Of a stretch of DNA of 5,071 nt, positions 149 through 5,071 are shown in pieces. The first letter of the stretch is position 1. Each line of letters opens with the position of its first letter. This DNA comes from a virus (taxonomy: Duplodnaviria > Heunggongvirae > Uroviricota > Caudoviricetes). Made by a program: the position numbers and the translations under genes. The notes under the pieces are model-generated. The model saw only the letters and a list, made by a program, of their open reading frames with translations. It did no database searches and was not told the origin of the DNA. The stretch lies in the IMG/VR virus record IMGVR_UViG_2663762849_000018. One strand, written 5' to 3'.

Positions 149-1186
149 ATGAACACCAAAATCAAATACGGCCTGTCGGCTGCCGTTCTGGCGCTGATTT
201 CCGCTGGTGCGCCTGCGCCTGACATTCTCGACCAGTTTCTGGATGAAAAGGAAGGCAACCACACCACGGCATACCGTGATGGTGCAGGTATCTGGACCAT
301 CTGCCGTGGTGCCATCATGGTGGATGGCAAACCTGTCGTTCCGGGCATGAAGTTGTCGAAGGAAAAATGCGACCAGGTTAACGCCATTGAGCGTGATAAA
401 GCGCTGGCGTGGGTGGAGAAAAACATCAGAGTGCCGCTGACCGAACCCCAGAAAGCGGGGATCGCGTCATTCTGTCCGTACAACATTGGTCCCGGTAAGT
501 GTTTCCCGTCGACGTTTTACAGACGAATTAATGCTGGTGATCGCAGGGGAGCATGCGAGGCGATTCGCTGGTGGATTAAGGACGGTGAGCGGTATTTTTT
601 CTGTAATGAGCTGAATGAAAAAGGGGAGCCGGTCACCTGGCAGGGGCGGCAATATCAGGCGTACCCGATTGAGGGGAGTGGCTTTGAGATGAACGGAAAG
701 GGCAGCAGTGCCCGCCCGTCGCTGACGGTGTCCAATCTTTTCGGCCTTGTCACCGGAATGGCGGAGGATTTGCAGAGCCTGGTGGGGGCCACGGTGGTCC
801 GCCGCCGGGTGTATGCCCGTTTTCTGGATGCGGTGAATTTCGTTGCGGGCAATCCGGAGGCGGACCCGGAGCAGGAGCTGAGTGACCGCTGGGTGGTGGA
901 GCAGATGTCGCAGCTGACAGCCATGACGGCCTCGTTTGTGCTGGCCACACCGACCGAGACGGACGGGGCGCTGTTTCCCGGTCGTATCATGCTGGCGAAC
1001 ACCTGTATGTGGACCTACCGCTCTGATGAGTGTGGTTACACGGGCGGGGCTGTGGCGGATGAGTTCGATAAACCCACCACGGATATCCGTAAGGACAGAT
1101 GCAGCAAGTGCATGCGCGGGTGTGAACTGCGCAGGAATGTCGGCAATTTTGGCGGTTTCCTTTCCATTAATAAACTTTCGCAGTAA
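149..1186 (+). CDS. Chimeric ORF: N-terminal SAR-type phage lysozyme (GH24, P21 R / RrrQ-like, residues ~1-146) fused in frame to lambda-like tail-tip protein L (residues ~147-345, equivalent to lambda gpL ~34-232)
   Basis: 345-aa ORF from the six-frame track. Residues 1-146 match P21 R / E. coli RrrQ-type lysozymes: Gly/Ala-rich weakly hydrophobic N-terminal segment YGLSAAVLALISAGAPAP (SAR-like), catalytic E35-x8-D44-x5-T50 (EGNHTTAYRDGAGIWT), and FYRRINAGDRRGACEAIRWW. From ERYFFCNELNEKGEPVTWQGRQYQ onward the sequence is nearly collinear with lambda gpL through the C-terminal GNFGGFLSINKLSQ, including the Cys cluster (C286, C295, C318, C321). Junction is at about nt 584-589 (…WWIKDG|ERYFF…). 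Confidence 0.85.
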   Translation: MNTKIKYGLSAAVLALISAGAPAPDILDQFLDEKEGNHTTAYRDGAGIWTICRGAIMVDGKPVVPGMKLSKEKCDQVNAIERDKALAWVEKNIRVPLTEPQKAGIASFCPYNIGPGKCFPSTFYRRINAGDRRGACEAIRWWIKDGERYFFCNELNEKGEPVTWQGRQYQAYPIEGSGFEMNGKGSSARPSLTVSNLFGLVTGMAEDLQSLVGATVVRRRVYARFLDAVNFVAGNPEADPEQELSDRWVVEQMSQLTAMTASFVLATPTETDGALFPGRIMLANTCMWTYRSDECGYTGGAVADEFDKPTTDIRKDRCSKCMRGCELRRNVGNFGGFLSINKLSQ

Positions 1187-1191
1187 ATCCC

Positions 1192-1935
1192 ATGACAGAG
1201 ACAGAATCAGCGATTCTGGCGCATGCCCGGCGGTGTGCGCCTGCGGAGTCGTGCGGCTTCGTGATAAGCACGCCGGAGGGGGAGCGGTATATCCCTTGTG
1301 TGAATATTTCCGCAGAGCCGGAGGCGTATTTTCGTATCGCACCGGAAGACTGGCTGCGGGCAGAGATGCAGGGGGAGATTGTGGCACTGGTCCACAGTCA
1401 TCCCGGTGGACTGCCCTGGCTGAGCGAGGCCGACCGGCGGCTGCAGATAAAAAGCGCACTGCCCTGGTGGCTGGTCAGCCGGGGTGACATTCACAAATTC
1501 CGCTGCGTTCCGCAACTGACGGGACGGCGCTTTGCGCACGGGGTGACGGACTGTTACACGCTGTTCCGGGATGCATACCATCTGGCAGGCATTGATATGC
1601 CGGATTTTCATCGCGGGGATGACTGGTGGTGCAACGGTCAGAACCTTTACCTGGACAATATGGAGGCAACGGGCTTTTACCGGGTGCCCCTGTCCTCTGC
1701 ACTGCCGGGCGATATCCTGCTGTGCTGCTTCGGCGCATCGGTGGCTAATCATGCCGCCATTTACTGCGGCAACGGTGAGCTGCTTCACCATCTGCCTGAA
1801 CAGCTGAGTAAACGGGAGAGGTATTCCGAAAAATGGCAACGACGAACGCATTCTGTCTGGCGTCACCGCCACTGGCACGCATCTGCCTTCACGGGGATTT
1901 ACAACGATTTGGCCGCCGCCTCAGCCTGTATGTGA
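1192..1935 (+). CDS. K: Tail-tip assembly protein K (JAMM/MPN metalloprotease-like N-terminal domain plus NlpC/P60 C-terminal domain)
   Basis: 247-aa ORF starting 5 nt after the L stop. Strong similarity to lambda gpK as I remember it (MTETESAILAHARRCAPAESCGF…). JAMM motif HSHPGGLPWLSEAD (H68, H70, S78, D81) and NlpC/P60-type Cys/His (C121 in TDCYTLF, H187, H199/H200). 103-nt out-of-frame overlap with the next gene, as I recall for lambda K/I. Confidence 0.9.
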   Translation: MTETESAILAHARRCAPAESCGFVISTPEGERYIPCVNISAEPEAYFRIAPEDWLRAEMQGEIVALVHSHPGGLPWLSEADRRLQIKSALPWWLVSRGDIHKFRCVPQLTGRRFAHGVTDCYTLFRDAYHLAGIDMPDFHRGDDWWCNGQNLYLDNMEATGFYRVPLSSALPGDILLCCFGASVANHAAIYCGNGELLHHLPEQLSKRERYSEKWQRRTHSVWRHRHWHASAFTGIYNDLAAASACM

Positions 1936-2513
1936 ACACGGCAGCGGAAGCCATCCGCGCACTGTCGATGCAGGTGCCGGGCTTTCGCCGTCAGATGAAC
2001 GAAGGCTGGTACCAGATACGCATTGCCGGTGAGGATACGGCACCGGAGGCGGTGTATGCCCGCCTTCACGAACCACTGGGTGAGGGAACGGTTATCCATA
2101 TTGTGCCGCGACTGGCCGGAGCCGGAAAGGGCGGACTACAGATTGTGCTGGGGGCAGCTGCCATTGTGGGGTCTTTCTTCACGGCCGGAGCATCAATGGC
2201 GTTATGGGGTTCAGCCCTGGCAGCCGGTGGTTTTTCTGCCACCACGATGCTGTTTTCACTGGGTGCCAGCATGATACTGGGCGGTGTGGCCCAGATGCTG
2301 GCCCCGAAGGCAAAAACACCGGATTACCGCGCAACGGATAACGGCAGACAGAACACGTATTTTTCCTCACTGGACAACATGATTGCCCAGGGCAACCCGA
2401 TGCCGGTGCCCTACGGTGAAATGCTGGTTGGTTCACGACGTATCTCTCAGGACATCAGCACCCGTGATGAAGGCGGAGACGGAAAGGTGGTGGTTATTGG
2501 TCGACAGGGATAA
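1833..2513 (+). CDS. I: Tail-tip assembly protein I (ubiquitin-like N-terminal domain with Gly/Ala-rich hydrophobic C-terminal region)
   Basis: 226-aa ORF, about the length I recall for lambda gpI and resembling it by memory. GGGAGAGG Shine-Dalgarno-like sequence at 1814-1821. Overlaps the K 3' end by 103 nt in a different frame. Hydrophobic Gly/Ala-rich stretch GLQIVLGAAAIVGSFFTAGASMALWGSALAAGGFSATTMLFSLGASMILGG. Confidence 0.9.
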   Translation: MATTNAFCLASPPLARICLHGDLQRFGRRLSLYVNTAAEAIRALSMQVPGFRRQMNEGWYQIRIAGEDTAPEAVYARLHEPLGEGTVIHIVPRLAGAGKGGLQIVLGAAAIVGSFFTAGASMALWGSALAAGGFSATTMLFSLGASMILGGVAQMLAPKAKTPDYRATDNGRQNTYFSSLDNMIAQGNPMPVPYGEMLVGSRRISQDISTRDEGGDGKVVVIGRQG

Positions 2514-2552
2514 AACATAAAAAAATCCCGCAGTGATCGCGGAGCTGCGGGG
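2514..2552 (-). terminator. Rho-independent terminator oriented for minus-strand transcription, immediately 3' of gene I
   Basis: 7-bp GC-rich stem CCCGCAG (2527-2533) / CTGCGGG (2545-2551) with an 11-nt loop. On the minus strand the stem is followed by AUUUUUUUAUGUUUU (plus-strand A-run 2514-2526). On the plus strand no U-tract follows the stem, so the element is directional. Confidence 0.6.
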
Positions 2553-2622
2553 ACAGACAAATGAAGATTAATGTTAAGGAGTTGTTTTTGTTACTCGGGC
2601 AAAAAAACACTAACGCAGCGAA

Positions 2623-2652
2623 ATTATAAGCGCCACAGTCAGTGTGTGAAAA
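2623..2652 (-). promoter_or_regulatory. Candidate sigma70-type promoter on the minus strand (perfect -10 TATAAT, weak -35 TTTTCA, 18-nt spacer)
   Basis: Minus-strand TATAAT corresponds to plus 2623-2628. A 4/6 match to TTGACA (TTTTCA, plus 2647-2652) lies 18 nt upstream. A transcript from here would run about 95 nt to the terminator at 2514-2552. Sequence inspection only. Confidence 0.25.
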
Positions 2653-2720
2653 TGTGAAGATATTCAGAATTTTTATGCCATTACCGGTTTTAACCAACAG
2701 GATTATCGGTGGGCATGAAA

Positions 2721-2760
2721 GAAAACCCCGGTATCTGCTGATACCGGGGTTTCTGTTTAG
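2721..2760. terminator. Perfect palindromic hairpin, possible bidirectional intrinsic terminator
   Basis: AAACCCCGGTAT (2723-2734) / ATACCGGGGTTT (2741-2752) is a perfect 12-bp inverted repeat around the 6-nt loop CTGCTG. Plus strand continues TTTCTGTTT; minus strand continues TTTTCTTTC after the stem. Confidence 0.45.
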
Positions 2761-2842
2761 CATGGCAGAAATGTGTTTCATGCTTTTCGGGCGAAGGATA
2801 TCCGACTTCTGTACGGAATGGCAAGTGGCGGTTAATTTATTC

Positions 2843-2851
2843 AGGGGAAGG
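2843..2851 (+). promoter_or_regulatory. Shine-Dalgarno-like ribosome-binding site for J
   Basis: AGGGGAAGG ends 4 nt upstream of the J ATG at 2856. Confidence 0.4.
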
Positions 2852-2855
2852 CTGT

Positions 2856-5071
2856 ATGGGAAAAGGTGGCGGTAAGGCACACACGCCTCGTGAGGCGAAG
2901 GATAATCTCAAATCCACGCAGATGATGAGCGTGATTGATGCGATTGGTGAGGGACCCATTGAAGGTCCGGTGAAAGGCCTGCAGAGTATTCTGGTGAACA
3001 AAACCCCGCTGACGGACACGGACGGTAATCCCGTGATACACGGTGTGACCGCGGTCTGGCGCGCCGGGGAGCAGGAGCAGACACCACCGGAAGGCTTTGA
3101 GTCCTCCGGAGCTGAAACTGTACTGGGTGTGGAAGTGACGAAGGCAAAACCGGTGACACGCACCATTACGTCAGCGAACATTGACCGCCTGCGGGTGACC
3201 TTCGGGGTGCAGTCACTGGTGGAGACCACCTCAAAGGGTGACCGTAACCCGACGTCTGTCCGCCTGCTGATTCAGCTTGAGCGTGGTGGTAAATGGATGA
3301 CGGAAAAGGATGTCACCATTAACGGCAAGACCACCTCGCAGTTCCTGGCGTCGGTGATTCTGGATAATCTGCCGCCCCGGCCCTTTAACATCCGGATGGT
3401 CAGGGAGACGGCGGACAGCACCACGGACCAGCTGCAGAATAAGACGCTCTGGTCGTCATACACCGAAATCATCGATGTGAAACAGTGCTACCCGAACACG
3501 GCCATTGTGGGGCTGCAGGTGGATGCGGAGCAGTTCGGCGGCCAGCAGATGACGGTGAACTACCATATCCGCGGTCGCATCATCCAGGTGCCGTCAAACT
3601 ATGACCCGGAAAAACGCACGTACAGTGGTATCTGGGACGGCAGTCTGAAACCGGCATACAGCAACAACCCGGCCTGGTGTCTGTGGGACATGCTGACTCA
3701 CCCGCGCTACGGGATGGGAAAACGTCTGGGGGCGGCGGATGTGGACAAGTGGGCGCTGTATGCCATCGGGCAGTACTGCGACCAGACGGTCCCGGATGGT
3801 TTCGGGGGCACAGAGCCGCGGATGACCTTTAATGCGTACCTGGCACAACAGCGTAAGGCGTGGGACGTTCTCAGTGATTTCTGCTCGGCGATGCGCTGTA
3901 TGCCGGTATGGAACGGCCAGACGCTGACGTTCGTTCAGGACCGCCCGTCGGATGTGGTGTGGCCGTACACCAACAGCGATGTGGTGGTGGATGATAACGG
4001 CGTGGGGTTCCGCTACAGCTTCAGTGCCCTGAAGGACCGGCACACGGCGGTGGAGGTGAATTACACCGACCCGCAGAACGGCTGGCAGACCTCCACGGAA
4101 CTGGTGGAAGACCCGGAAGCCATACTGCGCTACGGACGCAATCTGCTGAAGATGGATGCGTTTGGCTGTACCAGCCGCGGTCAGGCTCACCGTGCAGGTC
4201 TGTGGGTGATAAAGACCGAACTGCTGGAAACGCAGACGGTGGACTTCACGCTCGGGTCACAGGGGCTGCGTCACACACCGGGTGACATTATTGAAATCTG
4301 TGATAACGACTATGCCGGGACTATGACCGGCGGACGTATCCTGTCCATTGATGCTGCCACCCGCACCCTGACGCTGGACCGTGAGGTTACCCTGCCGGAG
4401 ACAGGTACATCGGCGGTGAACCTGATTAACGGCAGCGGTAAGCCGGTGAGTGTGGACATCACCGCACACCCCGCGCCGGACCGGATACAGGTCAGTACCC
4501 TGCCTGATGGTGTGGAGACATACGGTGTGTGGGGACTCTCCCTGCCGTCACTGCGCCGTCGCCTGTTCCGCTGTGTCTCCATCCGGGAAAACACGGACGG
4601 CACCTTTGCCATCACGGCGGTGCAGCACGTACCGGAAAAAGAAGCCATTGTGGATAACGGAGCCCGCTTTGAGCCGCAGTCAGGCACCCTGAACAGCGTT
4701 ATCCCACCGGCAGTACAGCACCTCACGGTGGAGGTGAGCGCAGCTGACAGCCAGTATCTGGCGCTGGCGAAATGGGACACGCCGAGGGTGGTGAAGGGCG
4801 TGCGCTTCAGTCTGCGCCTGACCAGTGGAAGCGATGAGAACAGCCGCCTGCTGACCACCGCCATCACTGCCGATACGGAGCACCGTTTCAGTGGCCTGCC
4901 TCTCGGGGAATACACCCTGACGGTCAGGGCGATAAACAGCTACGGCCAGCAGGGCGAACCGGCCACCACCACGTTCCGGATTAATGCGCCTGCAGCACCG
5001 GCCACCATTGAGCTGACGCCGGGGTATTTTCAGATAACGGCGGTACCGCGTCTTGCGGTGTATGACCCGAC
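2856..5071 (+). CDS. J: Host specificity protein J (tail-tip / central tail fibre), N-terminal 738 codons; 3' end beyond window
   Basis: ATG at 2856-2858 preceded by a purine-rich SD-like GGGGAAGG. Frame 3 is open to the window end. Translation MGKGGGKAHTPREAKDNLKSTQMMSVIDAIGEGPIEGP…TEIIDVKQCYPNTAIVG…AWCLWDMLTHPRYGMGKRLGAADVDKWALY…LFRCVSIREN…ITAVQHVPEKEAIVDNGA… is collinear with the N-terminal region of lambda gpJ as I remember it. Not listed in the ORF track because it has no stop inside the window. Confidence 0.92.
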   Translation, partial: MGKGGGKAHTPREAKDNLKSTQMMSVIDAIGEGPIEGPVKGLQSILVNKTPLTDTDGNPVIHGVTAVWRAGEQEQTPPEGFESSGAETVLGVEVTKAKPVTRTITSANIDRLRVTFGVQSLVETTSKGDRNPTSVRLLIQLERGGKWMTEKDVTINGKTTSQFLASVILDNLPPRPFNIRMVRETADSTTDQLQNKTLWSSYTEIIDVKQCYPNTAIVGLQVDAEQFGGQQMTVNYHIRGRIIQVPSNYDPEKRTYSGIWDGSLKPAYSNNPAWCLWDMLTHPRYGMGKRLGAADVDKWALYAIGQYCDQTVPDGFGGTEPRMTFNAYLAQQRKAWDVLSDFCSAMRCMPVWNGQTLTFVQDRPSDVVWPYTNSDVVVDDNGVGFRYSFSALKDRHTAVEVNYTDPQNGWQTSTELVEDPEAILRYGRNLLKMDAFGCTSRGQAHRAGLWVIKTELLETQTVDFTLGSQGLRHTPGDIIEICDNDYAGTMTGGRILSIDAATRTLTLDREVTLPETGTSAVNLINGSGKPVSVDITAHPAPDRIQVSTLPDGVETYGVWGLSLPSLRRRLFRCVSIRENTDGTFAITAVQHVPEKEAIVDNGARFEPQSGTLNSVIPPAVQHLTVEVSAADSQYLALAKWDTPRVVKGVRFSLRLTSGSDENSRLLTTAITADTEHRFSGLPLGEYTLTVRAINSYGQQGEPATTTFRINAPAAPATIELTPGYFQITAVPRLAVYDP

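Follow-up and report, generated by a model that had tools for sequence, protein, structure and literature searches.

A prophage tail-gene spacer of Escherichia carries a copy of pasB, a published Hfq-dependent small RNA gene

PasB, or pathogenicity-associated sRNA B, was described in EPEC O127:H6 strain E2348/69, where prophage PP6 encodes it (Pearl Mizrahi et al. 2021, PMC8550237). The study placed the gene on the minus strand of NC_011601 at 1466343..1466261, as an 83-nt RNA between E2348C_1436 and E2348C_1437, and validated it by Northern blot with the probe AATCCCGCAGTGATCGCGGAGCT (PMC8550237, Table S6). PasB depends strongly on Hfq: the log2 fold changes in an hfq mutant were -6.8 (activating condition) and -2.4 (non-activating condition), and the RNA is more abundant in the latter condition. 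With 37 RIL-seq interactions it took rank 15 among RNAs. In the activating condition it formed chimeras with bfpB, bfpI, ftsZ, galE, ler, perB, rplX and the pasA intergenic region, in which the PasB part lay at 1466260-1466309 (PMC8550237). A later study reported 1,158 PasB hits and 24 phage genomes, found that PasB is often the sole Pas gene in non-EPEC/EHEC strains and lies inside the phage structural operon, and proposed a seed immediately upstream of the terminator (Zhu, Shabalina and Storz 2026, doi 10.64898/2026.05.13.724894). A promoter, CRP or EcOnc22-24 is not mentioned for PasB in either paper, and published work gives no regulatory outcome for the targets of PasB.

Three groups of prophage-encoded elements offer further points of comparison. 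EcOnc22, EcOnc23 and EcOnc24 of EHEC O157:H7 Sakai map to the plus strand of prophages Sp15, Sp14 and Sp11, respectively (Tree et al. 2014, PMC4104026, Table S2). They were detected by Hfq-CRAC, gave a Northern band of ~85 nt and were destabilised without Hfq (PMC4104026); their function was still listed as unknown in 2021. HnrS (EcOnc10/11/12), an sRNA with multiple prophage copies, represses hha (Poudyal et al. 2026, PMC13502914). Finally, lambdoid phages carry 'morons' (Juhala et al. 2000, as cited in PMC4104026), examples of which are the anti-sRNAs AgvB and AsxR downstream of PR'.

The DNA studied here is a 5,071-nt stretch of a viral record (IMG/VR IMGVR_UViG_2663762849_000018), referred to below as the window. 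An earlier note, made from the letters of this sequence, had flagged a candidate small RNA on its minus strand, and comparison with E2348/69 identifies that candidate. The PasB Northern probe matches the plus strand at 2524-2546 with 0 mismatches, which means that the RNA it detected is the minus-strand one. E2348C_1436 and E2348C_1437 are gpI and gpJ, and in both genomes pasB lies between these genes and is convergent with gpI. Positions 2500-2669 align with E2348/69 without gaps and with only 2 differences, at 2569 and 2575; through this alignment the published 83-nt coordinates fall on 2519-2601 and the PasB side of the RIL-seq chimeras on 2518-2567. The promoter, terminator, strand and gpI-gpJ position are identical, as are 96 of the 98 nt of the predicted transcript, the two substitutions (nt 42 C>A and nt 48 G>A) both falling in its single-stranded middle. 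The first of them (window 2575, A here and C in EPEC) is the 'position 27' polymorphism published for PasB-2. Taken together, the probe match, the alignment with two differences and the 'position 27' site identify the flagged stretch as a copy of pasB, an already published Hfq-dependent prophage sRNA and not a new one. The exact 98-nt allele of the window is rare, with 17 records, and the common allele is 1 base away. A literature search with generic terms for an sRNA between genes I and J returned none, and the link was made through the EcOnc and Pas papers. Coordinates are collected in Table 1.

Table 1. Features of the window and of the pasB family; positions are those of the window unless an accession is given, and identity is the mean pairwise value between clade representatives of the family alignment.
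Feature	Position	Strand	Basis	Identity
Phage_lysozyme/Phage_tail_L fusion ORF	149-1186	+	Pfam	
gpK ORF, JAB and NlpC/P60 domains	1192-1935	+	Pfam	
gpI ORF, Lambda_tail_I	1833-2513	+	Pfam	
gpJ, start 2856; GpJ domains	2856-5069	+	Pfam	
Conserved 27-bp upstream box ATAAAAATTCTGAATATCTTCACATTT	2676-2650	-	family alignment	0.93
Spacer/-35 region		-	family alignment	0.53
-35 hexamer TTCACA, 16-nt spacer	2650-2645	-	consensus scan, 5/6 matches	
-10 hexamer TATAAT	2628-2623	-	consensus scan	0.87
Predicted PasB primary transcript, 98 nt	2519-2616	-	promoter and terminator geometry	
5' U-run region		-	family alignment	0.48
CUCC (anti-Shine-Dalgarno-like) block, nt 31-44, AACAACUCCUUAAC	2573-2586	-	candidate seed	
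CUCC block in the alignment		-	family alignment	0.69
AUCUUCAU, nt 49-56, AUCUUC invariant	2561-2568	-	most conserved single-stranded block	
AUCUUC block in the alignment		-	family alignment	0.84
Linker		-	family alignment	0.33
Intrinsic terminator, Hfq-binding module	2519-2551	-	stem and U7	
Terminator 3' arm and U-tract		-	family alignment	1.00
22-codon ORF MKINVKELFLLLGQKNTNAAKL, judged not a gene	2561-2629	+	ORF list	
HnrS calibration RNA	NC_002695.2 2234371-2234436			

The window comes from a lambdoid Escherichia prophage and covers its tail-tip region, where the genes are on the plus strand; the flagged stretch lies in the gap of 342 nt between I and J (2514-2855). A 391-nt query spanning this gap (2490-2880) found matches in 1612 of 5426 complete E. 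coli genomes, and its first half recurs in many Stx-converting phages at ~75% identity. The gap measures 240 nt in E2348/69, compared with 342 nt and a 13-bp hairpin module in the window. Its J-proximal half (2680-2855) forms a mosaic module of its own, which most E. coli copies have and E2348/69 lacks. Within it lies a perfect 13-bp hairpin at 2723-2752 (AAACCCCGGTATC/GATACCGGGGTTT); T-runs adjoin it on either strand, which gives it the appearance of a bidirectional terminator. On the minus strand a weak promoter-like site (TTGCCA-18-TATCCT, 2824-2795) could give an RNA of ~65 nt that ends at this hairpin. In other phages a different tail-sense terminator-like hairpin, CAGGCACC...GGTGCCTG with a T-run, occupies the same relative place, directly upstream of the PasB promoter. 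One possibility is that a terminator within the tail operon insulates that promoter. The entire gap, including the PasB gene, is also spanned by a 128-codon GTG-initiated ORF on the minus strand (2494-2880), which has no Shine-Dalgarno sequence, runs beyond the terminator of PasB and in relatives is interrupted by indels; we took it to be a chance frame.

Two further features of the surrounding tail module were observed. In the ORF at 149-1186, an N-terminal segment of a phage lysozyme (Pfam residues 33-147) continues in frame into minor tail protein L (residues 146-343), the junction lying near window position 580. The fusion implies that everything separating the lysis genes from the tail-tip genes has been deleted, and that the window comes from a defective prophage which still has pasB. 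The junction was found in no complete E. coli RefSeq genome, where the best matches begin at window positions 579-584. In E. coli 2018-166, whose I-J gap is 100% identical to that of the window, an annotated ompC porin gene (NZ_CP075632.1 190583-191746) sits inside an intact tail operon, between gpL and the gene after the tape-measure gene; this ompC is a second moron in the same tail module as pasB.

The elements of a transcription unit that the earlier note had read on the minus strand, namely a TATAAT at 2623-2628, a terminator stem within 2527-2551 followed by a U-tract, and a start near 2616, are all present, and the independently transcribed RNA of ~95 nt without an ATG-initiated ORF that it predicted is PasB, for which we predict 98 nt containing no AUG. 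The -35 was better than its description as weak: TTCACA matches the consensus at 5 of 6 positions, giving a promoter, TTCACA-16-TATAAT, with 11 of 12 consensus positions. Our scan of 2300-3000 found 3 promoter-like sites, compared with 0.8 expected. Placed 7 nt past the -10, the exact start would lie near 2616. The published 5' end corresponds to window position 2601, 15 nt downstream of this promoter-predicted start, which could reflect processing of the primary transcript or imprecision in the coverage-based coordinate. At the other end, the stem CCCGCAG/CUGCGGG (2551-2545/2533-2527) has 7 bp, is G+C-rich and 100% complementary, encloses an 11-nt loop and is followed by an A and U7 at 2526-2519.

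Folding of the 98-nt RNA gave a weak 5' hairpin between a U-run and an A-run, an open middle and the 3' terminator hairpin, with a folding energy mildly better than that of shuffled sequences (z = -1.8). In the RNAalifold consensus the terminator alone was recovered, and the 5' hairpin of the single-sequence fold was absent. None of the 8 RNAalifold pairs showed a two-sided change across 15 variants; the stem arms and U-tract are invariant, and because the stem never varies, covariation lends it no independent structural support. The Rfam covariance search that the earlier note had suggested was run with release 15 on the whole window at a permissive E-value and returned noise only: no family reached its gathering threshold, the best hit over the flagged stretch, to Hrs1, having 18.8 bits (E=3.6) where the gathering score is 56.4. 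No Rfam model exists for PasB in this release. The anatomy of PasB is that of a standard Hfq-dependent trans-acting sRNA.

We aligned 12 phage loci with 3 loci from Sakai, which together represent 15 distinct RNA variants in ~5 clades (identities in Table 1). Relatives that are ~75% identical and occupy the same gap keep the -10, AAYUCC, AUCUUC and the terminator, and the intervening sequence is scrambled. The -10 occurs as TATAAT, GATAAT, AATAAT or TATCAT, with A2 and T6 invariant. The -35 TTCACA is found only in PasB-type copies and is not kept by diverged relatives. The earlier note had made its proposal depend on conservation of the TATAAT/terminator pair in homologous spacers, and both elements are conserved between clades (0.87 for the -10 and 1.00 for the 3' arm and U-tract of the terminator). 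This mosaic conservation is the pattern expected of a functional promoter, seed and terminator.

The family is common. A distant search with the 98-nt RNA found it in 1748 of 5426 complete E. coli genomes, at 3890 places and with up to 8 per genome; 967 of the matching records have a copy of at least 90% identity, and 790 have diverged copies only. Among the matches listed, none of 40 lay over an annotated feature. When 185,579 species-representative genomes were scanned with a pattern made of seed plus terminator, the matches were to E. albertii and to a few short contigs that look like contamination, plus a single chance match, and the PasB family thus appears confined to Escherichia. Two copies, one in E. 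albertii and one on a contaminant-like contig, keep the RNA body from about nt 2; in both, the promoter and upstream box are replaced by unrelated sequence with a terminator-like hairpin, GGTAAGGGGCGGGCCCCTTACC, and a T-run at its end. These may be decayed or differently driven alleles.

The Sakai members of the alignment bear on EcOnc22-24. The coordinates in Table S2 of Tree et al. 2014 lie ~128-132 nt below those of NC_002695.2, at least across 2.17-2.90 Mb, and placing any EcOnc sRNA on that record requires a correction for this difference. This offset was calibrated on HnrS (EcOnc10), where the sole terminator-bearing RNA of 66 nt lies ~130 nt above the listed peak. The Sakai chromosome differs in length by 128 bp between genome versions, which agrees with the offset. 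In NC_002695.2, EcOnc22-24 fall in gpI-gpJ gaps, opposite to the tail genes, and each of these gaps holds one PasB-like RNA of 91 nt, that for EcOnc22 at 2902837-2902927. After a shift of +128 nt the EcOnc22 peak covers nt 7-67 of that RNA; unshifted, it falls on a stretch without a terminator and could not yield an 85-nt RNA. The Sakai RNAs have in common with the PasB of the window the upstream box, the -10, AACUCC, AAUCUUCAU and an identical terminator stem. They differ in overall identity (~75%), in a 5' part that is shorter and unlike that of the window RNA, and in the seed flanks; the O157-type and Sakai copies have no recognisable -35, and the promoter scan called no promoter there. On the strength of the +128-nt shift, which is stated in no paper, we infer that EcOnc22-24 are diverged PasB alleles and that all belong to one family.

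Upstream of the promoter, a 27-bp box is near-invariant in all promoter-bearing copies, at a fixed distance from the -10, and the 21-nt segment between box and -10, which includes the -35, is scrambled among clades. The core of the box, TCTGA-N6-TCACA (2668-2653), matches 9 of 10 positions of the CRP core, with a perfect right half-site, TCACATTT. A search of the window for TGTGA-N6-TCACA with at most 1 mismatch gave 1 match against 0.2 by chance, and 35 of 200 shuffles also gave one; a single match of this kind in 5 kb is not significant by itself. The centre of this core lies at about -44.5 from the predicted start, the canonical CRP positions being -41.5, or -61.5 and helical-turn steps upstream of it. 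Shifted -10 elements that would put the box at -41.5 (CTTATA, GCAATA, AGATAT and others) were rejected, as they do not have the required A2; the unshifted hexamers fit nATnAT. Chimeras of pasB number 258 in glucose medium and 1820 in LB (PMC8550237), a direction that is the same as for CyaR and opposite to that for Spot 42; McaS does not fit, and the agreement is a loose one. The CRP-like box suggests activator-dependent transcription that is regulated rather than constitutive. Alternatively, the box may be a Cra-like site (TGAAnn/TCTTCA), or may owe its conservation to a recombination joint.

Two single-stranded blocks are candidates for target recognition. AAYUCC is kept in 14 of the 15 variants, and the AUCUUCAU block lies within the region of the seed proposed by Zhu et al. 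We compared six RIL-seq target regions with 14-nt stretches of EPEC PasB, against a background of 138 real mRNA segments of 200 nt each. Averaged over the six targets, the z-score formed a single trough at stretches starting at nt 29-36. For EPEC nt 31-44 (AACAACUCCUUCAC), predicted energies ranged from -11.5 to -16.7 kcal/mol compared with a background median of -8.7 (Mann-Whitney p<1e-4). With the same six targets, nt 45-58, 17-30 and 3-16 showed no enrichment of pairing (p=0.14 for the AUCUUCAU block at nt 49-56). Examples are the predicted pairing of bfpI AGGAGUUGU with ACAACUCCU and of perB GGAAGGAG with CUCCUUC. Whole-RNA comparison by RNAduplex had produced long, loop-filled duplexes that were no better than shuffles, and it was replaced by the 14-nt stretches. 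From this test, which covers six targets with a simple duplex model and disagrees with the seed position of Zhu et al., the CUCC block (2586-2573) is probably the best seed candidate, with AUCUUCAU second. The A at nt 42 lies at the edge of this candidate seed and may give the allele of the window a slightly different target range.

In organisation, PasB resembles a moron. Like AgvB and AsxR it is an autonomous promoter-gene-terminator unit between late genes, and it is expressed from a repressed prophage. In the EPEC lysogen the DESeq baseMean is 4.8 (gpI) and 15 (gpJ), compared with pasB values of 482 and 1082 (PMC8550237); with flanking tail genes near-silent where pasB is abundant, PasB behaves as an autonomous moron. 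Unlike AgvB and AsxR, it lies in the tail module between I and J, away from the PR' moron site; its sequence is similar to neither RNA, and no Rfam hit to RF02702 or RF02703 was obtained. We know of no sponge (anti-sRNA) activity of PasB.

HnrS is like PasB in being short and Hfq-binding, in coming from a lambdoid late region, and in having an intrinsic terminator and the UAAUCUUC motif. It differs in sequence and terminator, and its locus lies between lysis and terminase genes. The multicopy late-region habit and UAAUCUUC had led us to suspect that the two are the same RNA, and the identification was rejected on the locus and sequence of EcOnc10. A common target was rejected as well: HnrS is predicted to pair with hha at -16.6 kcal/mol, and the best value among the PasB variants is -11.3, through the U-run and leaving AUCUUC unused. 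Among the EPEC RIL-seq entries listed, there is no hha-pasB chimera, and the hha-tomB (ybaJ) intergenic region pairs with PasC.

We consider it very probable that pasB is a moron between I and J that encodes an Hfq-dependent trans-acting sRNA. As a self-contained unit with its own promoter and terminator, it would have inserted between the two genes so as to be transcribed against the direction of the tail operon. Host RNA polymerase would, in the lysogen, start near 2616 and stop at the U7 terminator, giving an RNA of ~98 nt; the species of ~83-85 nt would be the form reported by Northern blots and coverage. The 3' hairpin with its U-tail, together with internal U- and A-rich stretches, would bind Hfq and so stabilise the RNA, and the conserved single-stranded blocks would pair in trans with host and virulence mRNAs. 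For the strain from which the window comes, expression of PasB and its regulatory outcome are presumed.

Two readings would deny the locus this role altogether. That a promoter-like and a terminator-like sequence have met by chance in an AT-rich spacer, with no transcript of their own, would fit the weakness of the consensus scans taken alone (1 terminator-like site against 0.8 expected) and the lack of an Rfam hit. The near-identical EPEC copy has, however, been detected by Northern blot, RNA-seq and RIL-seq, and the Sakai relatives by Hfq-CRAC and Northern blot, and conservation across the family is element-specific; since published expression data exist for a near-identical locus, this reading is refuted and we give it next to no credence. 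Hardly less improbable is a small-protein or type-I-toxin-like locus, in which a peptide is made from the 22-codon ORF under antisense repression by the minus-strand RNA. The ORF does exist, as the earlier note had described, preceded by GGGGA and fully overlapping the RNA on the other strand, and in the window it has an ATG. The comparison drawn there with sRNA/antisense or type I toxin pairs does not hold: the ATG is ACG in 7 of the 15 variants, and frame, content and stop diverge after ~10 codons. The peptide is not hydrophobic and has no Pfam match, and transcription of the sense strand is minimal in the EPEC lysogen. Moreover, the GGGGA lies within the complement of the terminator stem, and the AUCUUCAU and CUCC blocks, conserved in the RNA, give the conserved 'MKIN.KEL' start when their complementary strand is read. 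The ORF is therefore better understood as a by-product of the sRNA sequence than as a gene, and the locus does not belong with type I toxin-antitoxin systems.

A different role for a genuine PasB transcript deserves more weight, though we think it unlikely. By its position the RNA is perfectly complementary to the I-J intercistronic RNA, and it might act in cis as an antisense regulator of the phage's late tail transcript, directing cleavage or a change in J translation during lytic growth, or the late mRNA might mop up PasB. All relatives have the gene between I and J, even where identity has fallen to ~75%, and a purely trans-acting gene would not obviously need this position. The published chimeras, however, join PasB to unlinked host and plasmid mRNAs, and no chimera with an I-J locus tag appears among the RIL-seq entries listed; the lysogen has abundant PasB and next to no expression of the tail genes, and what is conserved is a set of short seed-like motifs and not the whole overlap. 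A cis-antisense role is compatible with a trans role, and the two are not exclusive. The trans-acting, Hfq-dependent moron is the reading that we retain.

With the sRNA already published, the additions made here are modest: the uniting of PasB and EcOnc22-24 in a family, the pairing at nt 31-44 and the upstream box. The gene is widespread and has no Rfam family, and scans that work from sequence alone will keep rediscovering it; the value of the identification lies in annotation. The CUCC block explains the RIL-seq partners better than the terminator-adjacent block does. Partners of PasB include the master virulence regulators ler and perB, and a seed together with an input signal would make a role in EPEC/EHEC testable. 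A more speculative proposal, which we regard as doubtful, is that PasB and EcOnc22-24 form a large, so far unannotated superfamily present in about one third of complete E. coli genomes, in which the CRP-like operator TCTGA-N6-TCACATTT replaces the missing -35 of the O157 copies, the RNAs are carbon-source-responsive virulence regulators, and variation in the flanks of AAYUCC gives each allele its own targets. If that were true, prophage sRNAs would be carbon-source-responsive regulators of the ler, perB and bfp virulence mRNAs.
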